Shown: positions 16,155 through 23,589 of the stretch, piece after piece
How positions within the stretch are numbered: position 1 is the first letter of the stretch
Layout of the letters: every line of letters begins with the position of its first letter
From: a virus
UHGV virus genome: UHGV-0278671
Direction: 5' to 3' (one strand)
Length of the DNA: 27,730 nucleotides
Program-made: the position numbers and the translations under genes
The notes under the pieces: generated by a model
What the model was told of the DNA's origin: nothing
What the model saw: only the letters and a program-made list of their open reading frames with translations
The model's database searches: none

Positions 16155-17015
16155 TCACCTGTCGAAAAACACGTAGCCAGTTTTCGATACGGTGATTGCG
16201 GATGATGGTTTGGATTGTGGTTGAATAGTTTCTGGCTTCTCGTCGTTCCAGCGTTGACCGTTCAGGTAGCTCGATGGTAACAACCTGTCGAATCCGAACT
16301 GCTTACCATTCCTGCATGCGATGTCTTCTGCCAGCATCGTGGCAAACTCGCTTGCCGTACCCCTGGTAGTTTTACGCCATTCCCTGAACTGTGTTCTGAA
16401 TGCCGAAGCTGCGTTTTTCTTCCCGGCTTTCCGCATGCCTGCACACCAGAATATTTCCTCGAATGCCTTGTCGGTTTCTTCGTGACGGTCATGTGATTTT
16501 TCACACTCCGTCCGAACACTTTCGGACATAGTGTTTTTATTATTTCTTTTTTCTTTTGTAATAGTTTCTTTTGTGTGTCCCTGTTTTGGTGACAGCGCTG
16601 TCACCGTTTTGGTGACACTTTTTGTCACCAATGCAGTGACATTATCACCAGAGTAGTGACACCCTTCGATTTGCCATTCTTCGATGTTCTTGTTAGGCCC
16701 GATTTGCTGGCCTTCGCGAAGGATAACCTTCATCGCGATAAGCTCATTCTTGGCCTTGTTTACCTTCTGTCTTGGCAGCCTGGTAATTTGAGCTAACTGA
16801 CTATCAGAAATGCGATCCATCTTTTTACCGTAGCCGTATGTTTTACGGCATATGGCGTGGGCAACCTTGCTCTGATTTTTCGTTAAATCTGCGCCGATAA
16901 GCTCTTCATACAGGGCATTTGCAAGACGGGTATAACCATCTTCAACTTCTGCCACACGACGCTCCACAGGCCGTTGTGAAGGCCTTAAATGTGTTACGGT
17001 TGCAAGATTACTCAT
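16155..17015 (-). CDS. Replication initiator (lambda O-like) with the origin inside the gene
   Basis: Position after cII; AAGGAG Shine-Dalgarno; the iteron array is translated in frame as a repetitive [18 protein letters not shown] linker. Confidence 0.75.
16524..16664 (-). repeat. Replication origin: four iterons plus adjacent AT-rich tract
   Basis: Iterons with GGTGACA/TGTCACC inverted cores at 16584-16605, 16606-16630, 16631-16650 and 16651-16664; AT-rich tract 16524-16580. Confidence 0.7.
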
Positions 17016-17166: not shown

Positions 17167-17241
17167 GGATTGATCCAGTAATGACCTCAGAATTCCATCT
17201 GGATTTGTTCAGAACGCTCGGTTGCCTCCGGGCGTTTTTTA
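17167..17241 (+). ncRNA. oop: oop antisense RNA overlapping the cII 3' end
   Basis: Plus strand gattgatccagtaatgacctcagaattccatctggatttgttcagaacgctcggttgcctccgggcgtttttt closely matches lambda oop as remembered; CATAAT -10 at 17152-17157; hairpin plus T6 terminator. Confidence 0.6.
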
Positions 17242-17480
17242 TTGGTGAGAATCGAAGCAACTTGTCGTGCCAATCGAGCCATATCGTCGTCGACGACGCC
17301 CCATTCAAGAACAGCAAGCAGCATTGAGAACTTTGGAATCCAATCCCTCTTCCACCTGCTGATCTGCGACTTATCAACTCCCACAGCTTCCGCTGTCTTC
17401 TCAGTTCCAAGCATTGCGATTTTGTTAAGCAACGCACTCTCGATTCTTAGAGCCTCGTTGCGTTTGTTTGCACGAACCAT
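17187..17480 (-). CDS. cII: CII transcriptional activator
   Basis: 97 aa [51 protein letters not shown]... essentially lambda CII; lambda-like leader taaggaaatacttacatATG; the ORF-track N-terminal extension is not used. Confidence 0.9.
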
Positions 17481-17538
17481 ATGTAAGTATTTCCTTAACA
17501 AATAAGAAGTTATGCGCATCAACTTATGCGCGTTGTAT

Positions 17539-17582
17539 TCCCGCATTTCGGCGGGAATGAGGACCATGACTGTTAAAGAGCG
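17539..17582 (-). promoter_or_regulatory. nutR: boxA CGCTCTTTAACA plus boxB hairpin
   Basis: On the minus strand between cro and cII: boxA cgctctttaaca (17571-17582) and boxB tcccgccgaaatgcggga (17539-17556), identical to the nutL copy. Confidence 0.6.
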
Positions 17583-17588
17583 GTGTTA

Positions 17589-17783
17589 CTATTTGTTTTT
17601 CTTGTTGCTTGGGAAAGGACGAACTTCCTCTCCAATCACACTGCCATCAGGCTTTACCGTAACCATGATGTTACGGCCTGCCAGAATGGCCTTGCTGATA
17701 GCGCACTGGATTACACCAAAGTCACTGGCTGCTTTAGCCTGTCCATGGATTTTGGCGTAATCGGCAAGTGTCATTCGAATCAT
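17589..17783 (-). CDS. cro: Cro repressor
   Basis: 64 aa [62 protein letters not shown] aligns with lambda Cro; GGAG 7 nt before ATG 17783. Confidence 0.85.
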
Positions 17784-17812
17784 ATGCACTCTCCGTTATT
17801 AACCATGAACAA

Positions 17813-17889: not shown

Positions 17890-18606
17890 ATGGAAAATAA
17901 AAAATCACTGACGACAGAACAGCTCGAAGACGCTAAGCGGCTTAAGGCTTTGTATGAGTCAAAAAAGAAAGAATTGGGGATAACCCAATACTCAATCGCT
18001 GATGAACTGGGTATCACCCAAGGAGCGGTAGGGCATTATCTTAATGGCAGAAACGCGCTAAACGTTGAGGTTGCATCTGGTTTTGCACGACTGTTGCAAG
18101 TCTCAATTGCTGATTTTAGCCAGTCAATTGCTGCCAAGGTTGCAGAACAGGCAGAAAGCCTTAAGAGCGATGCCAACGTAAGGTATGCAGGGGAATACAG
18201 AGCAGGAAAGAGGTATCCGGTGTTAAGCAGTATCCAGGCTGGCTCGTGGTGTGAAGCATGCGAACCATACACCATTAAAGACATAGATGTTTGGCTTGAG
18301 TCTGACGCGCATATTCAAGGTAATGCGTTCTGGCTTAAAGTGGAAGGTGATTCAATGACGGCACCGGTTGGGTTAAGCATTCCAGAGGGAACATTCGTTC
18401 TTTTCGATACCGGAAGGGAGGCGATCAACGGCAGCTTGGTCATAGCAAAACTTTCTGACTCTAACGAAGCAACATTCAAGAAGCTGATAATCGACGGCGG
18501 AAATAAATACCTTAAGGGACTTAATCCTGCATGGCCTCTCGTGCCAATCAATGGAAACTGCAAGATTATAGGCGTTGCAATTGAGACAAAACTAAGGCTG
18601 GTTTGA
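17890..18606 (+). CDS. cI: CI repressor (HTH plus LexA-like self-cleaving C-terminal domain)
   Basis: N-terminus LTTEQLEDAKRLKALYESKKKELGITQ and HTH; C-terminal FWLKVEGDSMTAP...FKKLI matches lambda CI FWLEVEGNSMTAP...FKKLI (catalytic Ser/Lys context). Confidence 0.9.
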   Translation: MENKKSLTTEQLEDAKRLKALYESKKKELGITQYSIADELGITQGAVGHYLNGRNALNVEVASGFARLLQVSIADFSQSIAAKVAEQAESLKSDANVRYAGEYRAGKRYPVLSSIQAGSWCEACEPYTIKDIDVWLESDAHIQGNAFWLKVEGDSMTAPVGLSIPEGTFVLFDTGREAINGSLVIAKLSDSNEATFKKLIIDGGNKYLKGLNPAWPLVPINGNCKIIGVAIETKLRLV

Positions 18607-18623
18607 TCACGCAAGGGGCGATT

Positions 18624-18992
18624 ATGGTTGGAACCGCTATAGCAAGCTTTTTTGGGATGTTGGCAATCTCGACAATTTACGGCTTAGCGCATGCTTTTAT
18701 TGCGAAATCTCTATCAGAAAAAATAAGCCAGGCTTGGGCGCATAGATCAGCTCGTTTCATGATTCTAGTGATCATAGCAATACAAGGGATATCTGCATTT
18801 ATCCTCTATGGTTCAAGCTTATACCTGTTGTATCAAGGCGCGACATTTACGCCTTACACCAGTGATTACGGAACTCTATACGATGGTAGTGAAGACATCT
18901 CTATGGCTTGGATTGTCTTTGGTTTATCTATGGCCGTGTCTGTTGTAGCAGATATCATTAAGGTAATTCTCGTCTTAACCTTCGCTGACTAA
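18624..18992 (+). CDS. Polytopic inner-membrane protein co-transcribed with cI (rexB/sieB position)
   Basis: AAGGGG 6 nt before ATG 18624, 18 nt after the cI stop; about four hydrophobic helices in 122 aa; no similarity to lambda RexB recognised. Confidence 0.55.
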   Translation: MVGTAIASFFGMLAISTIYGLAHAFIAKSLSEKISQAWAHRSARFMILVIIAIQGISAFILYGSSLYLLYQGATFTPYTSDYGTLYDGSEDISMAWIVFGLSMAVSVVADIIKVILVLTFAD

Positions 18993-19123: not shown

Positions 19124-19165
19124 AATACCTTGGGTATTTACACAATAAAATACCTACAGTATTCT
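19124..19165 (+). promoter_or_regulatory. OL operators overlapping pL
   Basis: Perfect operators AATACcttggGTATT (19124-19138) and AATACctacaGTATT (19149-19163); -35 TTTACA 19137-19142, 17-nt spacer, -10 TATTCT 19160-19165. Confidence 0.6.
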
Positions 19166-19211
19166 TTAGCCATCAGCAGGACGCTGGTAGCCAAACGGAA
19201 CATATTGGCAG

Positions 19212-19252
19212 GCTCTTTAACATTGATGGGATTGTCCCGCCGAAATGCGGGA
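19212..19252 (+). promoter_or_regulatory. nutL: boxA GCTCTTTAACA plus boxB hairpin
   Basis: boxA 19212-19222 matches the rrn-type boxA consensus; boxB tcccgccgaaatgcggga 19235-19252 (5-bp stem CCCGC/GCGGG), identical to nutR. Confidence 0.6.
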
Positions 19253-19359
19253 ACCAAAGAGTAGTTGGCTTTGGGGTGACGTGAAGTGCAGCTGCACGAC
19301 GGCAACCGGAAGATAAGCACCCGGCGCGTCACCTCCAAAGTCAATCATCGGAGATCAAC

Positions 19360-19632
19360 ATGACAGTAGTCATTACATATCTGGCTGACGATAACACCAG
19401 AAATCGCCGCAGAGCACGCAGACAGGCTCAACGTGAACAGGCAATGCAAGAGCAGCGACTGGCGCGAAAAATTGCGCTAAAGCTCTCTGGTTGCGTCAGA
19501 GCAGACAAAGCAGCATCACTCGGAAGCCTTCGCTGCAAGAAGGCAGATGAATGCAGTGGAAGTATTTGCCTGCCAGAAGTTGCGCTTTTCGCAGCTGGTC
19601 ATCGTACAAGTAAGCAGGTTACAGCGAGGTAA
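19360..19632 (+). CDS. N: N-type antitermination protein
   Basis: Arginine-rich motif NTRNRRRARRQAQREQ near the N-terminus; C-terminus LPEVALFAAGHRTSKQVTAR resembles P22 gp24 as remembered; first gene after pL/nutL. Confidence 0.75.
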   Translation: MTVVITYLADDNTRNRRRARRQAQREQAMQEQRLARKIALKLSGCVRADKAASLGSLRCKKADECSGSICLPEVALFAAGHRTSKQVTAR

Positions 19633-19635
19633 GTG

Positions 19636-19860
19636 ATGAATCAGACATACATTCCATCATGCTTGAGAAATCTGCCAAAGCAGAAAGCAAAGCCCCGCAA
19701 GCAAGCCATAAAGGACGCTAAGGCAGAGGTTATTGATCAAGCAATACAATTGCTCAGGGAGGAGTTAAGAAGTGGCAAGCTCGAAGGAATGATGATGCCC
19801 TATCAGCGCGGATATCTATCGGCGATTAGTAAGTTGGAAGTATTGAAGAGTGAATTATGA
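19636..19860 (+). CDS. Hypothetical protein (74 aa)
   Basis: Starts immediately after the N stop; GAGG 7 nt before ATG 19636. Confidence 0.4.
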   Translation: MNQTYIPSCLRNLPKQKAKPRKQAIKDAKAEVIDQAIQLLREELRSGKLEGMMMPYQRGYLSAISKLEVLKSEL

Positions 19861-19922
19861 ACTATCTGGAATTTCCGGATGGTTCATTGTTTTGGCAGCA
19901 AACCACTTATTTGAGGTGAGAT

Positions 19923-20393
19923 ATGACAAAATCATGGAGCGTACCTTTTCCTGAATCAGAAACTGAACATGATGGAATGCCTGTTTTCTGGAGATTCCAG
20001 GCGACAGTTGAAGAAGATGGGATAAAAATATTCGCACTTCAATATATAGCTTTTCATCAGACAGAGCATTATGCATGGTTGGTTCCTGCGCATTGGATTG
20101 TTAATTTTAAACCAGCACCAAATCAGTGGTTACAGGAATGGAAACAAAGGAGAAATAGATATGCAATTAAGAAAGTAGCAAAAAATGCAGAAAGATCTTT
20201 TGCATTCCCAACGAAGAAACTTGCCATTGAGAGTTTATTGCGCCGGAAGAAATACCATTTAATGAGAATCAAACAAGATTTGGCTGTTGTATCAACTCTT
20301 GTTGATGGGATGAAGAATATTGATACATCAACACCAGATATTGAATATAACTTTGGACACAACCAAGAAACAGAAAATTGGGTATTCTACTAG
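19923..20393 (+). CDS. Hypothetical protein (156 aa) in an AT-rich segment
   Basis: GAGGTGAG before the ATG; visibly lower GC than neighbouring genes; no recognisable motifs. Confidence 0.5.
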   Translation: MTKSWSVPFPESETEHDGMPVFWRFQATVEEDGIKIFALQYIAFHQTEHYAWLVPAHWIVNFKPAPNQWLQEWKQRRNRYAIKKVAKNAERSFAFPTKKLAIESLLRRKKYHLMRIKQDLAVVSTLVDGMKNIDTSTPDIEYNFGHNQETENWVFY

Positions 20394-20626
20394 GACGCAT
20401 AGTCGGCCTTTATTTTTGGCATAAACAACAGAATAAATACTGCACTGTGTATTCATTCCAACGAGTGAATACACGGAGCAATGTCGCTCGTAACTAAACA
20501 GGAGCCGACTTGTTCTGATTATTGGAAATCTTCTTTGCCCTCCAGTGTGAGGGCTTTTTTATATGCATACCAATAACGCTTCACTCGAGGCGTTTTCGTT
20601 ATGCAATCAAACAGAAGGAGCATCCT

Positions 20627-20797
20627 ATGCAACAGTTCGCTATTGCAGGGGCGGCATCGGTTCGCCCTTTCAACCCGATTTTATCGGTACAGCATTCACG
20701 AAAAAACATTCTAACCGGAGCAGACTTTAAACAACCAAGAATGAAAAGTTTGCTCGAAAAGCTTTGGGATATTTTGAAACAACAAGGCCGCCCATGA
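20627..20797 (+). CDS. cIII: CIII-like protein (FtsH inhibitor)
   Basis: 56 aa MQQFAIAGAAS...LLEKLWDILKQQGRP resembles lambda CIII (MQYAIAGWPVAG...WKRLIDILNQPG); AAGGAG 6 nt before the ATG. Confidence 0.65.
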   Translation: MQQFAIAGAASVRPFNPILSVQHSRKNILTGADFKQPRMKSLLEKLWDILKQQGRP

Positions 20798-21051: not shown

Positions 21052-21759
21052 ATGGATTTGAACAAATTCGATGAGCCATTCAGCCCTGAAGATATCGAAT
21101 GGCGAATACAGCAAAGCGGTAAAACACGCGATGGCAAAGTGTGGGCTATGGTGCTGGCTTATGTCACGAACCGGGCAATCATGAAACGCCTGGACGATGT
21201 TTGCGGCAAAGCAGGATGGCGCAATGAATACCGCGATATTCCCAACAACGGCGGCGTTGAATGCGGCATATCAATAAAGATTGATTCCGAATGGGTAACC
21301 AAATGGGATGCTGCTGAAAACACGCAGGTAGAAGCCGTCAAAGGTGGTCGTTCCGGTGCAATGAAGCGCGCTGCCGTTCAGTGGGGAATCGGTCGGTATC
21401 TGTATAACCTTGAGGAAGGTTTCGCACAAACATCTCTCGATAAAAAGCAGGGGTGGCACAGGGCAAAACTCAAGGATGGAACAGGATTTTACTGGCTCCC
21501 TCCATCGCTGCCGGGATGGGCAATCCCAGCATCAGATAACAAACCATCACCAGAAAGTACCAACCAGAAATCTCCATCGGTTGACTGCGAGAAAATCCTG
21601 AAAGACTTCAGCGATTATGCGTCAACAGAAACTGACAAGAAAAAACTCATCGAGCGTTATCAGCGTGACTGGCAATTAATGGCTGGCAATGAGGATGCGC
21701 AGGCTAAATGCGTTCAGGTAATGAACATCAGAGTTAACGAGCTAAAACAGGCGGCATAA
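21052..21759 (+). CDS. Single-strand annealing protein: Rad52/Sak-like N-terminus fused to an Erf-like C-terminal domain
   Basis: N-terminal region resembles Rad52-family annealing proteins; C-terminus YASTETDKKKLIERYQRDWQLMAGNEDAQAKCVQVMNIRVNELKQAA matches the P22 Erf C-terminus as remembered. Confidence 0.75.
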   Translation: MDLNKFDEPFSPEDIEWRIQQSGKTRDGKVWAMVLAYVTNRAIMKRLDDVCGKAGWRNEYRDIPNNGGVECGISIKIDSEWVTKWDAAENTQVEAVKGGRSGAMKRAAVQWGIGRYLYNLEEGFAQTSLDKKQGWHRAKLKDGTGFYWLPPSLPGWAIPASDNKPSPESTNQKSPSVDCEKILKDFSDYASTETDKKKLIERYQRDWQLMAGNEDAQAKCVQVMNIRVNELKQAA

Positions 21760-22233
21760 ATGGCAAGCAGAGGCGTAAATAAGGTGATCATTATTGGTCG
21801 CCTTGGGCATGATCCAGAAATCAGATATTCACCATCAGGAACGGCATTTGCAAACCTTACAGTTGCTACGTCAGAACAATGGCGTGATAAGCAAACTGGA
21901 GAGCAAAAGGAGCAGACGGAGTGGCACCGTGTGGTAATGAGCGGGAAACTGGCAGAAATTGCCAGCGAGTATCTGCGGAAAGGCTCAGAGGTTTATCTTG
22001 AAGGCAAATTGCGGACAAGAAAATGGCAGGATCAAAGTGGACAGGATCGGTTCACTACCGAAGTTATCGTAGGCGTTGGTGGAACCATGCAAATGCTTGG
22101 TGGCAAGCAAGGAGGCAATGAACAGTCTTCACCTCAGCGAAATAACGGTCAGCAACAAAGACAGCAACCTCAGCAGCATGGAAATCACAGCGAACCACCT
22201 ATGAACTTCGACGATTCGGATATTCCGTTCTAG
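21760..22233 (+). CDS. ssb: Single-stranded DNA-binding protein
   Basis: [23 protein letters not shown]...TEWHRVV...LRTRKW... near-identical to E. coli SSB as remembered; acidic tail ending DSDIPF. Confidence 0.9.
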
Positions 22234-22242
22234 GAGCTGAAT

Positions 22243-22722
22243 ATGAAAATCTGCTCAAGATGCCATCAACAGAAGGAAGAAAGGGACTTTCAAATCAGAA
22301 GAGCATCCAGAGATGGATTAACTGCCGCTTGCCGGGCTTGCCTGGCTGAATATGACAAAGAGCGCGCGGGATTGCCACATCGAGTATCAGCAAGGAGAGA
22401 ATATCAATCATCGGAACGCGGCAGAGAACGGTGTAACGCAGCCAAAAAGCGGTTCATTCAGAGCAACCCATGGAAAAGAAAAGCCCACATCATCGTGGGT
22501 AATTTTTTGCGCGACGGTAAGCTAATCCGACCACCACAATGTGAGTGCTGCGGATCAGAATGTAAACCACAGGCGCACCACTGCGACTACAGCAAACCAA
22601 CCGATGTGATGTGGCTCTGCAAGTCATGTCATGTCGAGTGGCACAAACATAACAAACCTATCTACCCAGACGAGGAGCCAGTAACTCTCCCCTTCCCTCG
22701 TCACGCTATTCACGCAATTTAA
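22243..22722 (+). CDS. HNH-family endonuclease-like protein with N-terminal Cys cluster
   Basis: CSRCH...CRAC and C-terminal QAHHCDYSKPTDVMWLCKSCHVEWH fit a zinc-bound HNH motif. Confidence 0.55.
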   Translation: MKICSRCHQQKEERDFQIRRASRDGLTAACRACLAEYDKERAGLPHRVSARREYQSSERGRERCNAAKKRFIQSNPWKRKAHIIVGNFLRDGKLIRPPQCECCGSECKPQAHHCDYSKPTDVMWLCKSCHVEWHKHNKPIYPDEEPVTLPFPRHAIHAI

Positions 22723-22730
22723 GGACTTAC

Positions 22731-23279
22731 ATGAATCACTTGATGGTTGACCTTGAAACAATGGGCAACGGGCCATACGCGCCAGTTATTTCTATTGGGG
22801 CGGTATTCTTTGACCCGAATACCGGAGAAACAGGAGAAGAGTTCTCGGTAAATATCTCGCTTGAGTCATCAATGCGATATCGGGCGCGTCCTGACGCTTC
22901 AACGATTTTATGGTGGCTGGAACAGAGTGAAGAAGCCAGAAAATCGCTAACCAGCAACATTCAGGAGCTTTCAACGGCTCTTTCATGGTTATCTGAATTC
23001 ATCATAAAGAACGCTAACCACAAATTCGTTCAGGTTTGGGGGAATGGAGCATCATTTGACTGCGTTATTCTCCGAAACAGTTATTCGCTGACAGGGCAGC
23101 CAGTTCCATGGCAGTGGTGGAATGACCGCGACGTAAGAACAATCGTCGAGCTTGGAAAGGTAATAGGATTCGACCCTAAGCGAGATATGCCATTCAAAGG
23201 AACTCGCCACAACGCTCTTGATGATGCCATTCACCAAGCCAAATACGTTTCAGCGATCTGGAAAAAGTTAGCTAAATAA
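22731..23279 (+). CDS. DnaQ-like 3'-5' exonuclease
   Basis: DEDDh-type motifs: MVDLET (Exo I), FDCVILRN (Exo II-like), HNALDDA (Exo III). Confidence 0.65.
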   Translation: MNHLMVDLETMGNGPYAPVISIGAVFFDPNTGETGEEFSVNISLESSMRYRARPDASTILWWLEQSEEARKSLTSNIQELSTALSWLSEFIIKNANHKFVQVWGNGASFDCVILRNSYSLTGQPVPWQWWNDRDVRTIVELGKVIGFDPKRDMPFKGTRHNALDDAIHQAKYVSAIWKKLAK

Positions 23280-23295
23280 TCAACAGGAGAAAACC

Positions 23296-23589
23296 ATGCC
23301 AGCGCCTCTGTATGGTGCGGATGACGCGCGCCGCTGTTCCGGCAATTCCGTATCGGAGGTGCTGGATAAATTCAGAAAAAACTACGATCGGATAATGTCG
23401 CTACCGCAGGAAACGAAAGAGGAAAAGGAATTTCGCCACTGTATATGGCTTGCAGAGAAAGAAGAACGCGAGCGAATTTACCAGACATCAATCCGACCAT
23501 TCCGCAAAGCCACATATACCCACTTCCCTGAAATTGACCCGCGCCTGCGTAATTACCGCTCACGCTATGGTGCTATCAGTAATGACTGA
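23296..23589 (+). CDS. Hypothetical protein (97 aa)
   Basis: AGGAG before the ATG; no recognised motifs. Confidence 0.45.

Follow-up and report, generated by a model that had tools for sequence, protein, structure and literature searches.

What does the small, AT-rich gene between N and cIII do for the phages that carry it? Lambdoid phages carry ral, sieB, gene 17 and ea10 in the variable stretch between these two genes, and an accessory cassette in this hotspot is a well-known kind of feature. The example studied here comes from a 27,730-nucleotide stretch of viral DNA (UHGV virus genome UHGV-0278671), the whole of which is referred to as the window. A first-pass annotation had singled out a 156-aa ORF in it as an AT-rich moron at the ral/sieB/gene-17 position, encoding a protein without recognisable motifs. 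Databases already list the ORF, under the label of a hypothetical protein.

Within the window lie the immunity region and the early region of a lambdoid prophage (Table 1). On the plus strand, cI is followed by a small membrane-like ORF, N, orf75, the 156-aa ORF, cIII and two small ORFs. Further 3′ lie genes for a Rad52-like annealing protein, an SSB, an endonuclease-like protein, an Rv2179c-like 3′-5′ exonuclease and Abc2. The placement between N and cIII given by the first-pass annotation thus stands, and in the PL (leftward early) operon the 156-aa ORF comes third. A promoter scan found PL to be the sole promoter-like site 5′ of the ORF on the plus strand. A consensus scan of 19600-19960, even at a relaxed threshold, gave no sigma-70-like site or extended -10, and no promoter belonging to the ORF itself was seen in the 320 nt upstream, so the ORF depends on PL. 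The window contains no Rfam families and no tRNAs.

Table 1 Coordinates of early-region and cassette features in the window
Feature	Position	Strand	Basis
Replication gene O	16155-17015	minus	Pfam Phage_rep_O 1.1e-37
cII	17187-17567	minus	5.6e-48
cro	17589-17789	minus	3.6e-26
cI	17890-18606	+	HTH_3 plus Peptidase_S24
PL promoter, TTTACA-17-TATTCT	19137-19165	+	promoter scan
OL operators of form AATACCnnnnGGTATT, overlapping PL	19137-19165	+	same repeats recur between cI and cro
N antiterminator, first gene of the PL transcript	19360-19632	+	Pfam N_peptide 1.3e-13; phrog_271 1e-30
orf75, small gene between N and the 156-aa ORF	19633-19860	+	phrog_5305 4.8e-38
14-bp hairpin overlapping the orf75 stop codon, then TGTTTTGG	19857-19887	+	terminator scan; RNA fold z = -4.1
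Cassette left junction, 32-nt linker with ribosome-binding site GAGGTGA	19891-19922	+	homology breakpoint
156-aa ORF	19923-20393	+	phrog_1636
Structured 3′UTR	20394-20536	+	fold of 20394-20566: -55.2 kcal/mol, z = -5.3
Perfect hairpin GTGTATTCATTC-CAAC-GAGTGAATACAC in the 3′UTR	~20445-20476	+	fold; conserved
Intrinsic terminator GCCCTCCAGTGTGAGGGC then T6, cassette right end	20537-20560	+	terminator scans
cIII-type gene, downstream neighbour	20627-20797	+	phrog_550 'CIII' 1e-22

Two other parts of the window deserve description in their own right. Directly after cI and upstream of PL, a 129-aa hydrophobic ORF (18603-18992, plus strand; phrog_6534) occupies the rexAB-type slot, co-transcribed with the repressor in lysogens, and is a better candidate for a prophage-expressed exclusion gene than the 156-aa ORF. 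The recombination module (21052-23589, plus strand) is unusual in consisting of a Rad52/Rad22-type annealing protein, an SSB, the endonuclease-like protein, the Rv2179c-like protein (3′-5′ exoribonuclease fold, 1e-72) and Abc2, without the usual Exo/Bet or Erf sets. Between the SSB and exonuclease genes, 22243-22722 (plus strand) encodes a 159-aa cysteine-rich protein that matches phrog_2340 'endonuclease' (2.6e-47) and has no Pfam match; over its first 70 residues there is also a weak match to a Lar-like restriction-alleviation PHROG (7.5e-7).

The AT-richness that drew attention to the ORF is real. Its GC content is 36.5%, that of the whole window 47.0%, and it is the most AT-rich stretch of the window; 0.34% of 471-nt windows are as GC-low, nearly all of them overlapping the ORF. 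Codon usage departs in the same direction, with GC3 at 29.3% (38-56% across 12 neighbouring genes) and A/T-ending codons at 76.6% (55.3% in the 12 neighbours; Fisher p = 4.6e-7). When the protein was recoded with the codon usage of the neighbours, the GC content came to 44.7 ± 1.3% and never fell below 40.2% in 2,000 trials, so the deficit is mostly synonymous and does not reside in amino-acid content. The ORF is compositionally foreign to its surroundings, as the first-pass annotation had it. At 11 of 11 loci checked the homologous gene has a GC content below that of its surroundings. Homologues from Brenneria and Pectobacterium (L015, L016, 3501-3977) reach a GC3 of 45-47%, which indicates that only the E. 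coli allele is so strongly AT-rich.

Since AT-rich DNA has stop-free frames by chance, if few and only on some strands, the open frame could in principle be fortuitous and the real feature non-coding: a leader, an H-NS-bound spacer or a structured 3′ element. Conservation and structure of the 3′UTR even where the ORF is missing would suit such a view. The pattern of conservation already refutes it, and its residual probability is negligible. Wherever dS is measurable and unsaturated, dN/dS is 0.07-0.16; 40 columns are invariant among homologues of 55-85% identity; and the protein is conserved down to 20-28% identity across 87 cluster representatives, with a reciprocal tblastn match. The ATG start is preceded at 5 nt by the good ribosome-binding site GAGGTGA, the structure prediction is confident, and no Rfam family lies in the window to account for a non-coding feature. 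Judged by its evolution, the ORF is evidently a genuine protein-coding gene under purifying selection.

The gene travels as a unit. Homology with HK97, H-19B, 933W and phi24B begins at 19891 and ends at 20560/20565, and these breakpoints enclose a promoter-less cassette made up of a ribosome-binding linker, the ORF, a structured 3′UTR and an intrinsic terminator; the terminator moves together with the cassette, and the HK97 annotation marks its counterpart as a putative terminator. On the left, the sequence shared with phi367 and ECP1 ends at 19925. The linker of ~35 nt (19891-19925) is matched on its own in ~300 E. coli genomes that lack the ORF, and it precedes other genes elsewhere: in phi367 the gene is ral, in ECP1 a small ORF. 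In phi367, ral is inserted between two copies of a 19-nt junction bearing the ribosome-binding site. The linker looks like a shared recombination junction for cassette exchange.

ECP1 provides the empty site. It shares the flanks 19161-19925 and 20399-20560 with the window, and ~165 nt of unrelated DNA replace the ORF. The 3′UTR is retained in ECP1 although the ORF is absent, and its perfect hairpin is found in 65 of 71 related loci. This hairpin could be an RNase III site or the source of a 3′UTR-derived small RNA; no Rfam family matches the 3′UTR, which is ~39 bases longer in the window than in HK97, 933W and phi24B.

These observations qualify the label of moron. Of the four defining features (Juhala/Hendrix), the gene has three: (i) it is inserted between genes adjacent in a related phage, as the ECP1 flanks show; (ii) its base composition is distinct, as the recoding control confirms; (iii) it is followed by its own terminator. 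A promoter of its own, for expression from a repressed prophage, was not found by the consensus scan. The name therefore holds in part, and the gene is not a moron in the strict sense.

The match to phrog_1636 (E = 2.7e-112) runs from residue 1 to 156 on profile positions 1-156. The protein is 99.4% identical to HK97 gp45 over 156 residues and 100% identical to 933W ST933Wp19 (NP_049479), phi24B vb_24B_11c and the BP-4795 protein, and the identical protein is present in dozens of Stx1 and Stx2 phages. By sequence, the ORF is the E. coli allele of the HK97 gp45/933W p19 family. The position after N, the 3′UTR and the terminator of gp45, p19 and 11c are as in the window, and in the window, too, the gene lies downstream of N in the leftward early operon. 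The members of phrog_1636 are all annotated as hypothetical, and literature searches by gene name, accession and locus tag found no paper on the protein.

At least 1,000 contigs encode exactly this protein. Of 5,426 complete E. coli genomes, 593 have a near-full-length copy, at up to four places each. At 80 IMG/VR loci the identical protein is encoded by ORFs differing by 0-10 nt, which argues that the cassette has spread horizontally in recent times, and these 80 loci show at least 55 different neighbour arrangements. Where both flanks are readable, the gene lies between N and cIII, each of several types. N, of several unrelated types, precedes it directly or with one or two small ORFs between, and ea10, gene 17 or other genes sometimes lie between it and cIII.

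Beyond E. coli, homologues of 55-85% identity occur in Salmonella, Cronobacter, Pectobacterium, Brenneria and Rosenbergiella. An exhaustive profile search yielded the 87 cluster representatives at E <= 1e-3; the distant relatives among them are mostly of 130-155 aa, they fall in phrog_13631 and phrog_25384, and one matches HK97 gp45 back in tblastn over 95% of its length. The distant relatives are all unnamed and carry neither a Pfam domain nor a fused one; three apparent domain fusions (P0066, P0080, P0031) looked spurious or chimeric. Among unrelated phages, the sequence relatives are placed in early regions. A Salmonella phage has its homologue (64% identity) at the head of an early operon, before a DNA-binding protein; a Vibrio phage has it in second place in an operon that diverges from recE; and in phages of Pseudomonas and from metagenomes it is surrounded by small hypothetical genes, with Sak4-like, YqaJ, SSB, methylase or integrase genes nearby. 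In prophages of Brenneria and Pectobacterium the homologue closes the early operon and does not adjoin N, and it is followed directly by unannotated ORFs that we take to be a xis-like small ORF and a tyrosine-recombinase-like int. No conserved gene partner emerged from 12 diverse and 80 close loci.

That the protein has no recognisable motif was borne out by searches of Pfam, NCBIfam, PADLOC and PDB sequences, run with the single protein and with a 40-member profile, which returned no family. The sole PADLOC match was a fragment of the unrelated model Cas1_II (E = 0.018, 12 bits), and identity with a known antiphage defence protein was rejected.

With a mass of 18.6 kDa and a pI of 9.1, the protein contains seven tryptophans and lacks cysteine. 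It is acidic at either end, and residues 61-120 have a pI of 11.1. Hydropathy over 19 residues peaks at 0.56, which leaves no transmembrane segment; the protein is soluble and basic. The AlphaFold model built from close homologues alone was poor (pLDDT 59.5); with the diverse 40-member alignment, the model reached a pLDDT of 92.3 and a pTM of 0.79. The predicted structure has three long antiparallel β-strands (19-30, 33-46, 50-55), two short helices (56-61, 66-74), a short fourth strand (83-86), a 33-residue amphipathic helix (98-130) and an ordered C-terminal tail. Comparison of the model with solved structures found no match, and the α/β fold is thus predicted to be a previously unseen one, lacking a solved counterpart.

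Relatives of the predicted fold occur in phages of the Schitoviridae and Ackermannviridae (E 1e-4 to 6e-7), found by structure only, at 12-23% identity and TM 0.44-0.64. The family therefore appears to span temperate lambdoid, Vibrio and Pseudomonas phages and, at the level of the modelled fold, may extend to virulent N4-like phages and Ackermannviridae. In the wide-family alignment (A2) A101 is the only invariant residue, and M1, G33, E46 and K87 are nearly so; E46 is Q throughout the enterobacterial clade, the E/Q-T pair being nearly invariant. What persists is a basic pattern, K..K....R-F/Y-A, followed on the long helix by L..RK..Q..HLKR.L. Because no catalytic residues are conserved and this basic motif is, we read the protein as a binder and not as an enzyme.

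The ral/sieB/gene-17 address proposed at the outset was sustained by comparison with other phages: the gene lies directly after ral in phi367 and directly before gene 17 in H-19B, and precedes ea10 in 933W. It is unrelated to these occupants of the slot. Profile comparison gave hhalign probabilities of 0.08% against phi367 Ral (with no Pfam hit at E <= 0.1), 1.8% against H-19B gp17 and 0.15% against Ea10, and a SieB-like protein was rejected for want of a transmembrane segment and of any Pfam hit.

The likenesses are of another kind. Ral is also a small accessory gene of the early PL operon in the N-to-cIII stretch, and the 156-aa protein would, like Ral, bind and not catalyse. Ral is smaller (~66 aa), and since the two genes stand side by side in phi367 they are not alternatives for one function. 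Gene 17 of P22, which serves escape from Fels-1 exclusion, and lambda ea10 are hotspot neighbours likewise transcribed early from PL, the former co-occurring with the 156-aa gene in H-19B and the latter in 933W. The P22 map places sieB after ral and before gene 17. The SieB protein resides in the membrane, is made from its own promoter and is active in the lysogen; the 156-aa gene shares the map slot, but its product has no hydrophobic segment and no promoter lies upstream. A functional analogy can be drawn with T7 Ocr (gene 0.3), which is among the first genes on entry and is a small, non-enzymatic binder. Ocr is a highly acidic DNA mimic, whereas the 156-aa protein is basic and structurally unrelated; if it counters a defence, it would do so in a different way. 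The recombination-linked PL region has been described as a hotspot for anti-defence genes and defence triggers (bioRxiv 10.64898/2026.07.10.737580). Oad2, the anti-OLD protein of the same hotspot in that study, was rejected as a relative, being EaE-related.

When would the protein be made? orf75 is missing from HK97 and 933W, where the gp45 gene follows N directly, and terminator scans of both phages give the order N, gp45, first strong terminator after PL. Because it lies upstream of that terminator, gp45 should be part of the N-independent, immediate-early transcript. The window differs in having orf75 and a hairpin between N and the 156-aa ORF, and because these intervene, expression in the window's phage may need N. 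From the order of genes and terminators, we infer that the term immediate-early would apply strictly to HK97 and 933W only. The 14-bp hairpin sits just outside the cassette, has a weak U-tract and may be terminator-like or a processing site; it is common to phi367 and ECP1 and absent from HK97 and 933W. orf75, which starts one base past the N stop codon (taaGTGATG), is found only in a subset of the phages with this type of N. In HK97 a promoter-like site in antisense orientation came up at the 3′ end of gene 45; the same scan reported none in the window, and the site was set aside.

Superinfection exclusion or abortive infection by a prophage-expressed gene, a true moron like SieB, Rex or HK97 gp15, is what the slot itself brings to mind, as we take it to be the P22 sieB position. 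Adjacency to ral and gene 17, the foreign base composition, the terminator and the very high prevalence in prophages all accord with such a role. Expression in the lysogen is the difficulty: without a promoter of its own the gene lies behind a repressed PL, here with a hairpin in addition. Moreover the protein, unlike SieB, lacks a transmembrane segment, the only PADLOC hit is to an unrelated model, and fold relatives reside in obligately virulent phage families. The gene is not among the lysogen-expressed phi24B genes given in the main text of two studies (PMC4651098, PMC3342100), and the available part of the supplementary text of the phi24B transcriptome study (PMC4651098) does not contain it. 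With no promoter, a soluble product and relatives in virulent phages, lysogen-expressed exclusion is improbable. The missing promoter and the virulent-phage fold relatives are compatible with an early counter-defence role. We give an equally small chance to a Kil-type factor that kills the host or arrests its growth by blocking an essential process during lytic growth, with no relation to defence. Early expression from PL beside kil-type genes, small size and the lack of an enzymatic signature are all in keeping with it, but the fold shows no link to FtsZ, RNA polymerase or the other usual targets. This reading overlaps the host-takeover half of the explanation that we prefer.

The main rival is a nucleic-acid-handling role: an accessory protein for the phage's own early programme that binds recombination or replication intermediates, DNA ends or an early transcript and has no host-defence target. 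The strongly basic segment 61-120 and the conserved basic helix speak for it, and the basic surface fits internal handling of DNA or RNA equally well as it fits counter-defence. So do the gene's neighbours. In the window the ORF lies 660 nt upstream of the recombination module, and in distant phages its relatives are found after an AAA_24/Sak4-like gene and a DUF3799 nuclease, downstream of YqaJ, RNase_T and SSB, beside RecE, or before a DNA-binding protein and a sliding-clamp-like gene. Against this, the gene is facultative; close relatives such as ECP1 have the same flanks without the ORF, so that an accessory and not a core function is to be expected. It is also paired with a Rad52-like protein in the window, Erf in HK97, Bet/Exo in 933W and several types of N, and a specific recombination partnership is unlikely for a gene that combines freely with at least three unrelated systems. 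We regard a purely internal role as rather unlikely.

The positional neighbours Ral, gp17, CIII, Kil, Gam and Abc2 act by neutralising host factors or defences, and Ral, CIII, Kil, Gam and Abc2 are established inhibitors of host proteins. We propose, tentatively and at somewhat short of an even chance, that the 156-aa protein is an early, non-enzymatic binding protein serving counter-defence or host takeover, as its position, timing and surface chemistry suggest. The proposal draws on the presumed early lytic expression, neighbours that mostly inhibit host proteins, facultative and mobile presence, and a basic surface without catalytic residues. The product would appear very soon after infection or induction and, in HK97 and 933W, ahead of any action by N. 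It would act by stoichiometric binding and not by catalysis, neutralising a host factor or an antiphage defence via a nucleic acid or an acidic protein partner. A look through the supplementary files of one large screen of accessory genes for counter-defence did not turn up the gene.

A bolder form of the proposal, which we hold to be possible but doubtful, is that the protein is the founding member of a widespread family with a new fold, whose conserved basic helix inhibits a bacterial immune system or is sensed by one.

What is new here is the delineation of the cassette, its unrelatedness to the known occupants of the slot, its link to a broad phage family and a confident structural model without a solved counterpart. 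The cassette ranks with the accessory genes that E. coli lambdoid prophages share most widely, and in the phages that spread Shiga toxin it is a well-defined candidate for a new activity in counter-defence or host takeover. Should the protein prove to be a mundane DNA-binding helper, interest would be limited to annotating a large 'hypothetical' family. If instead the immune-system reading is true, the cassette would help to decide which hosts Shiga-toxin phages can infect, since it is present in identical form in ~11% of complete E. coli genomes and in most of the Stx phages sequenced.
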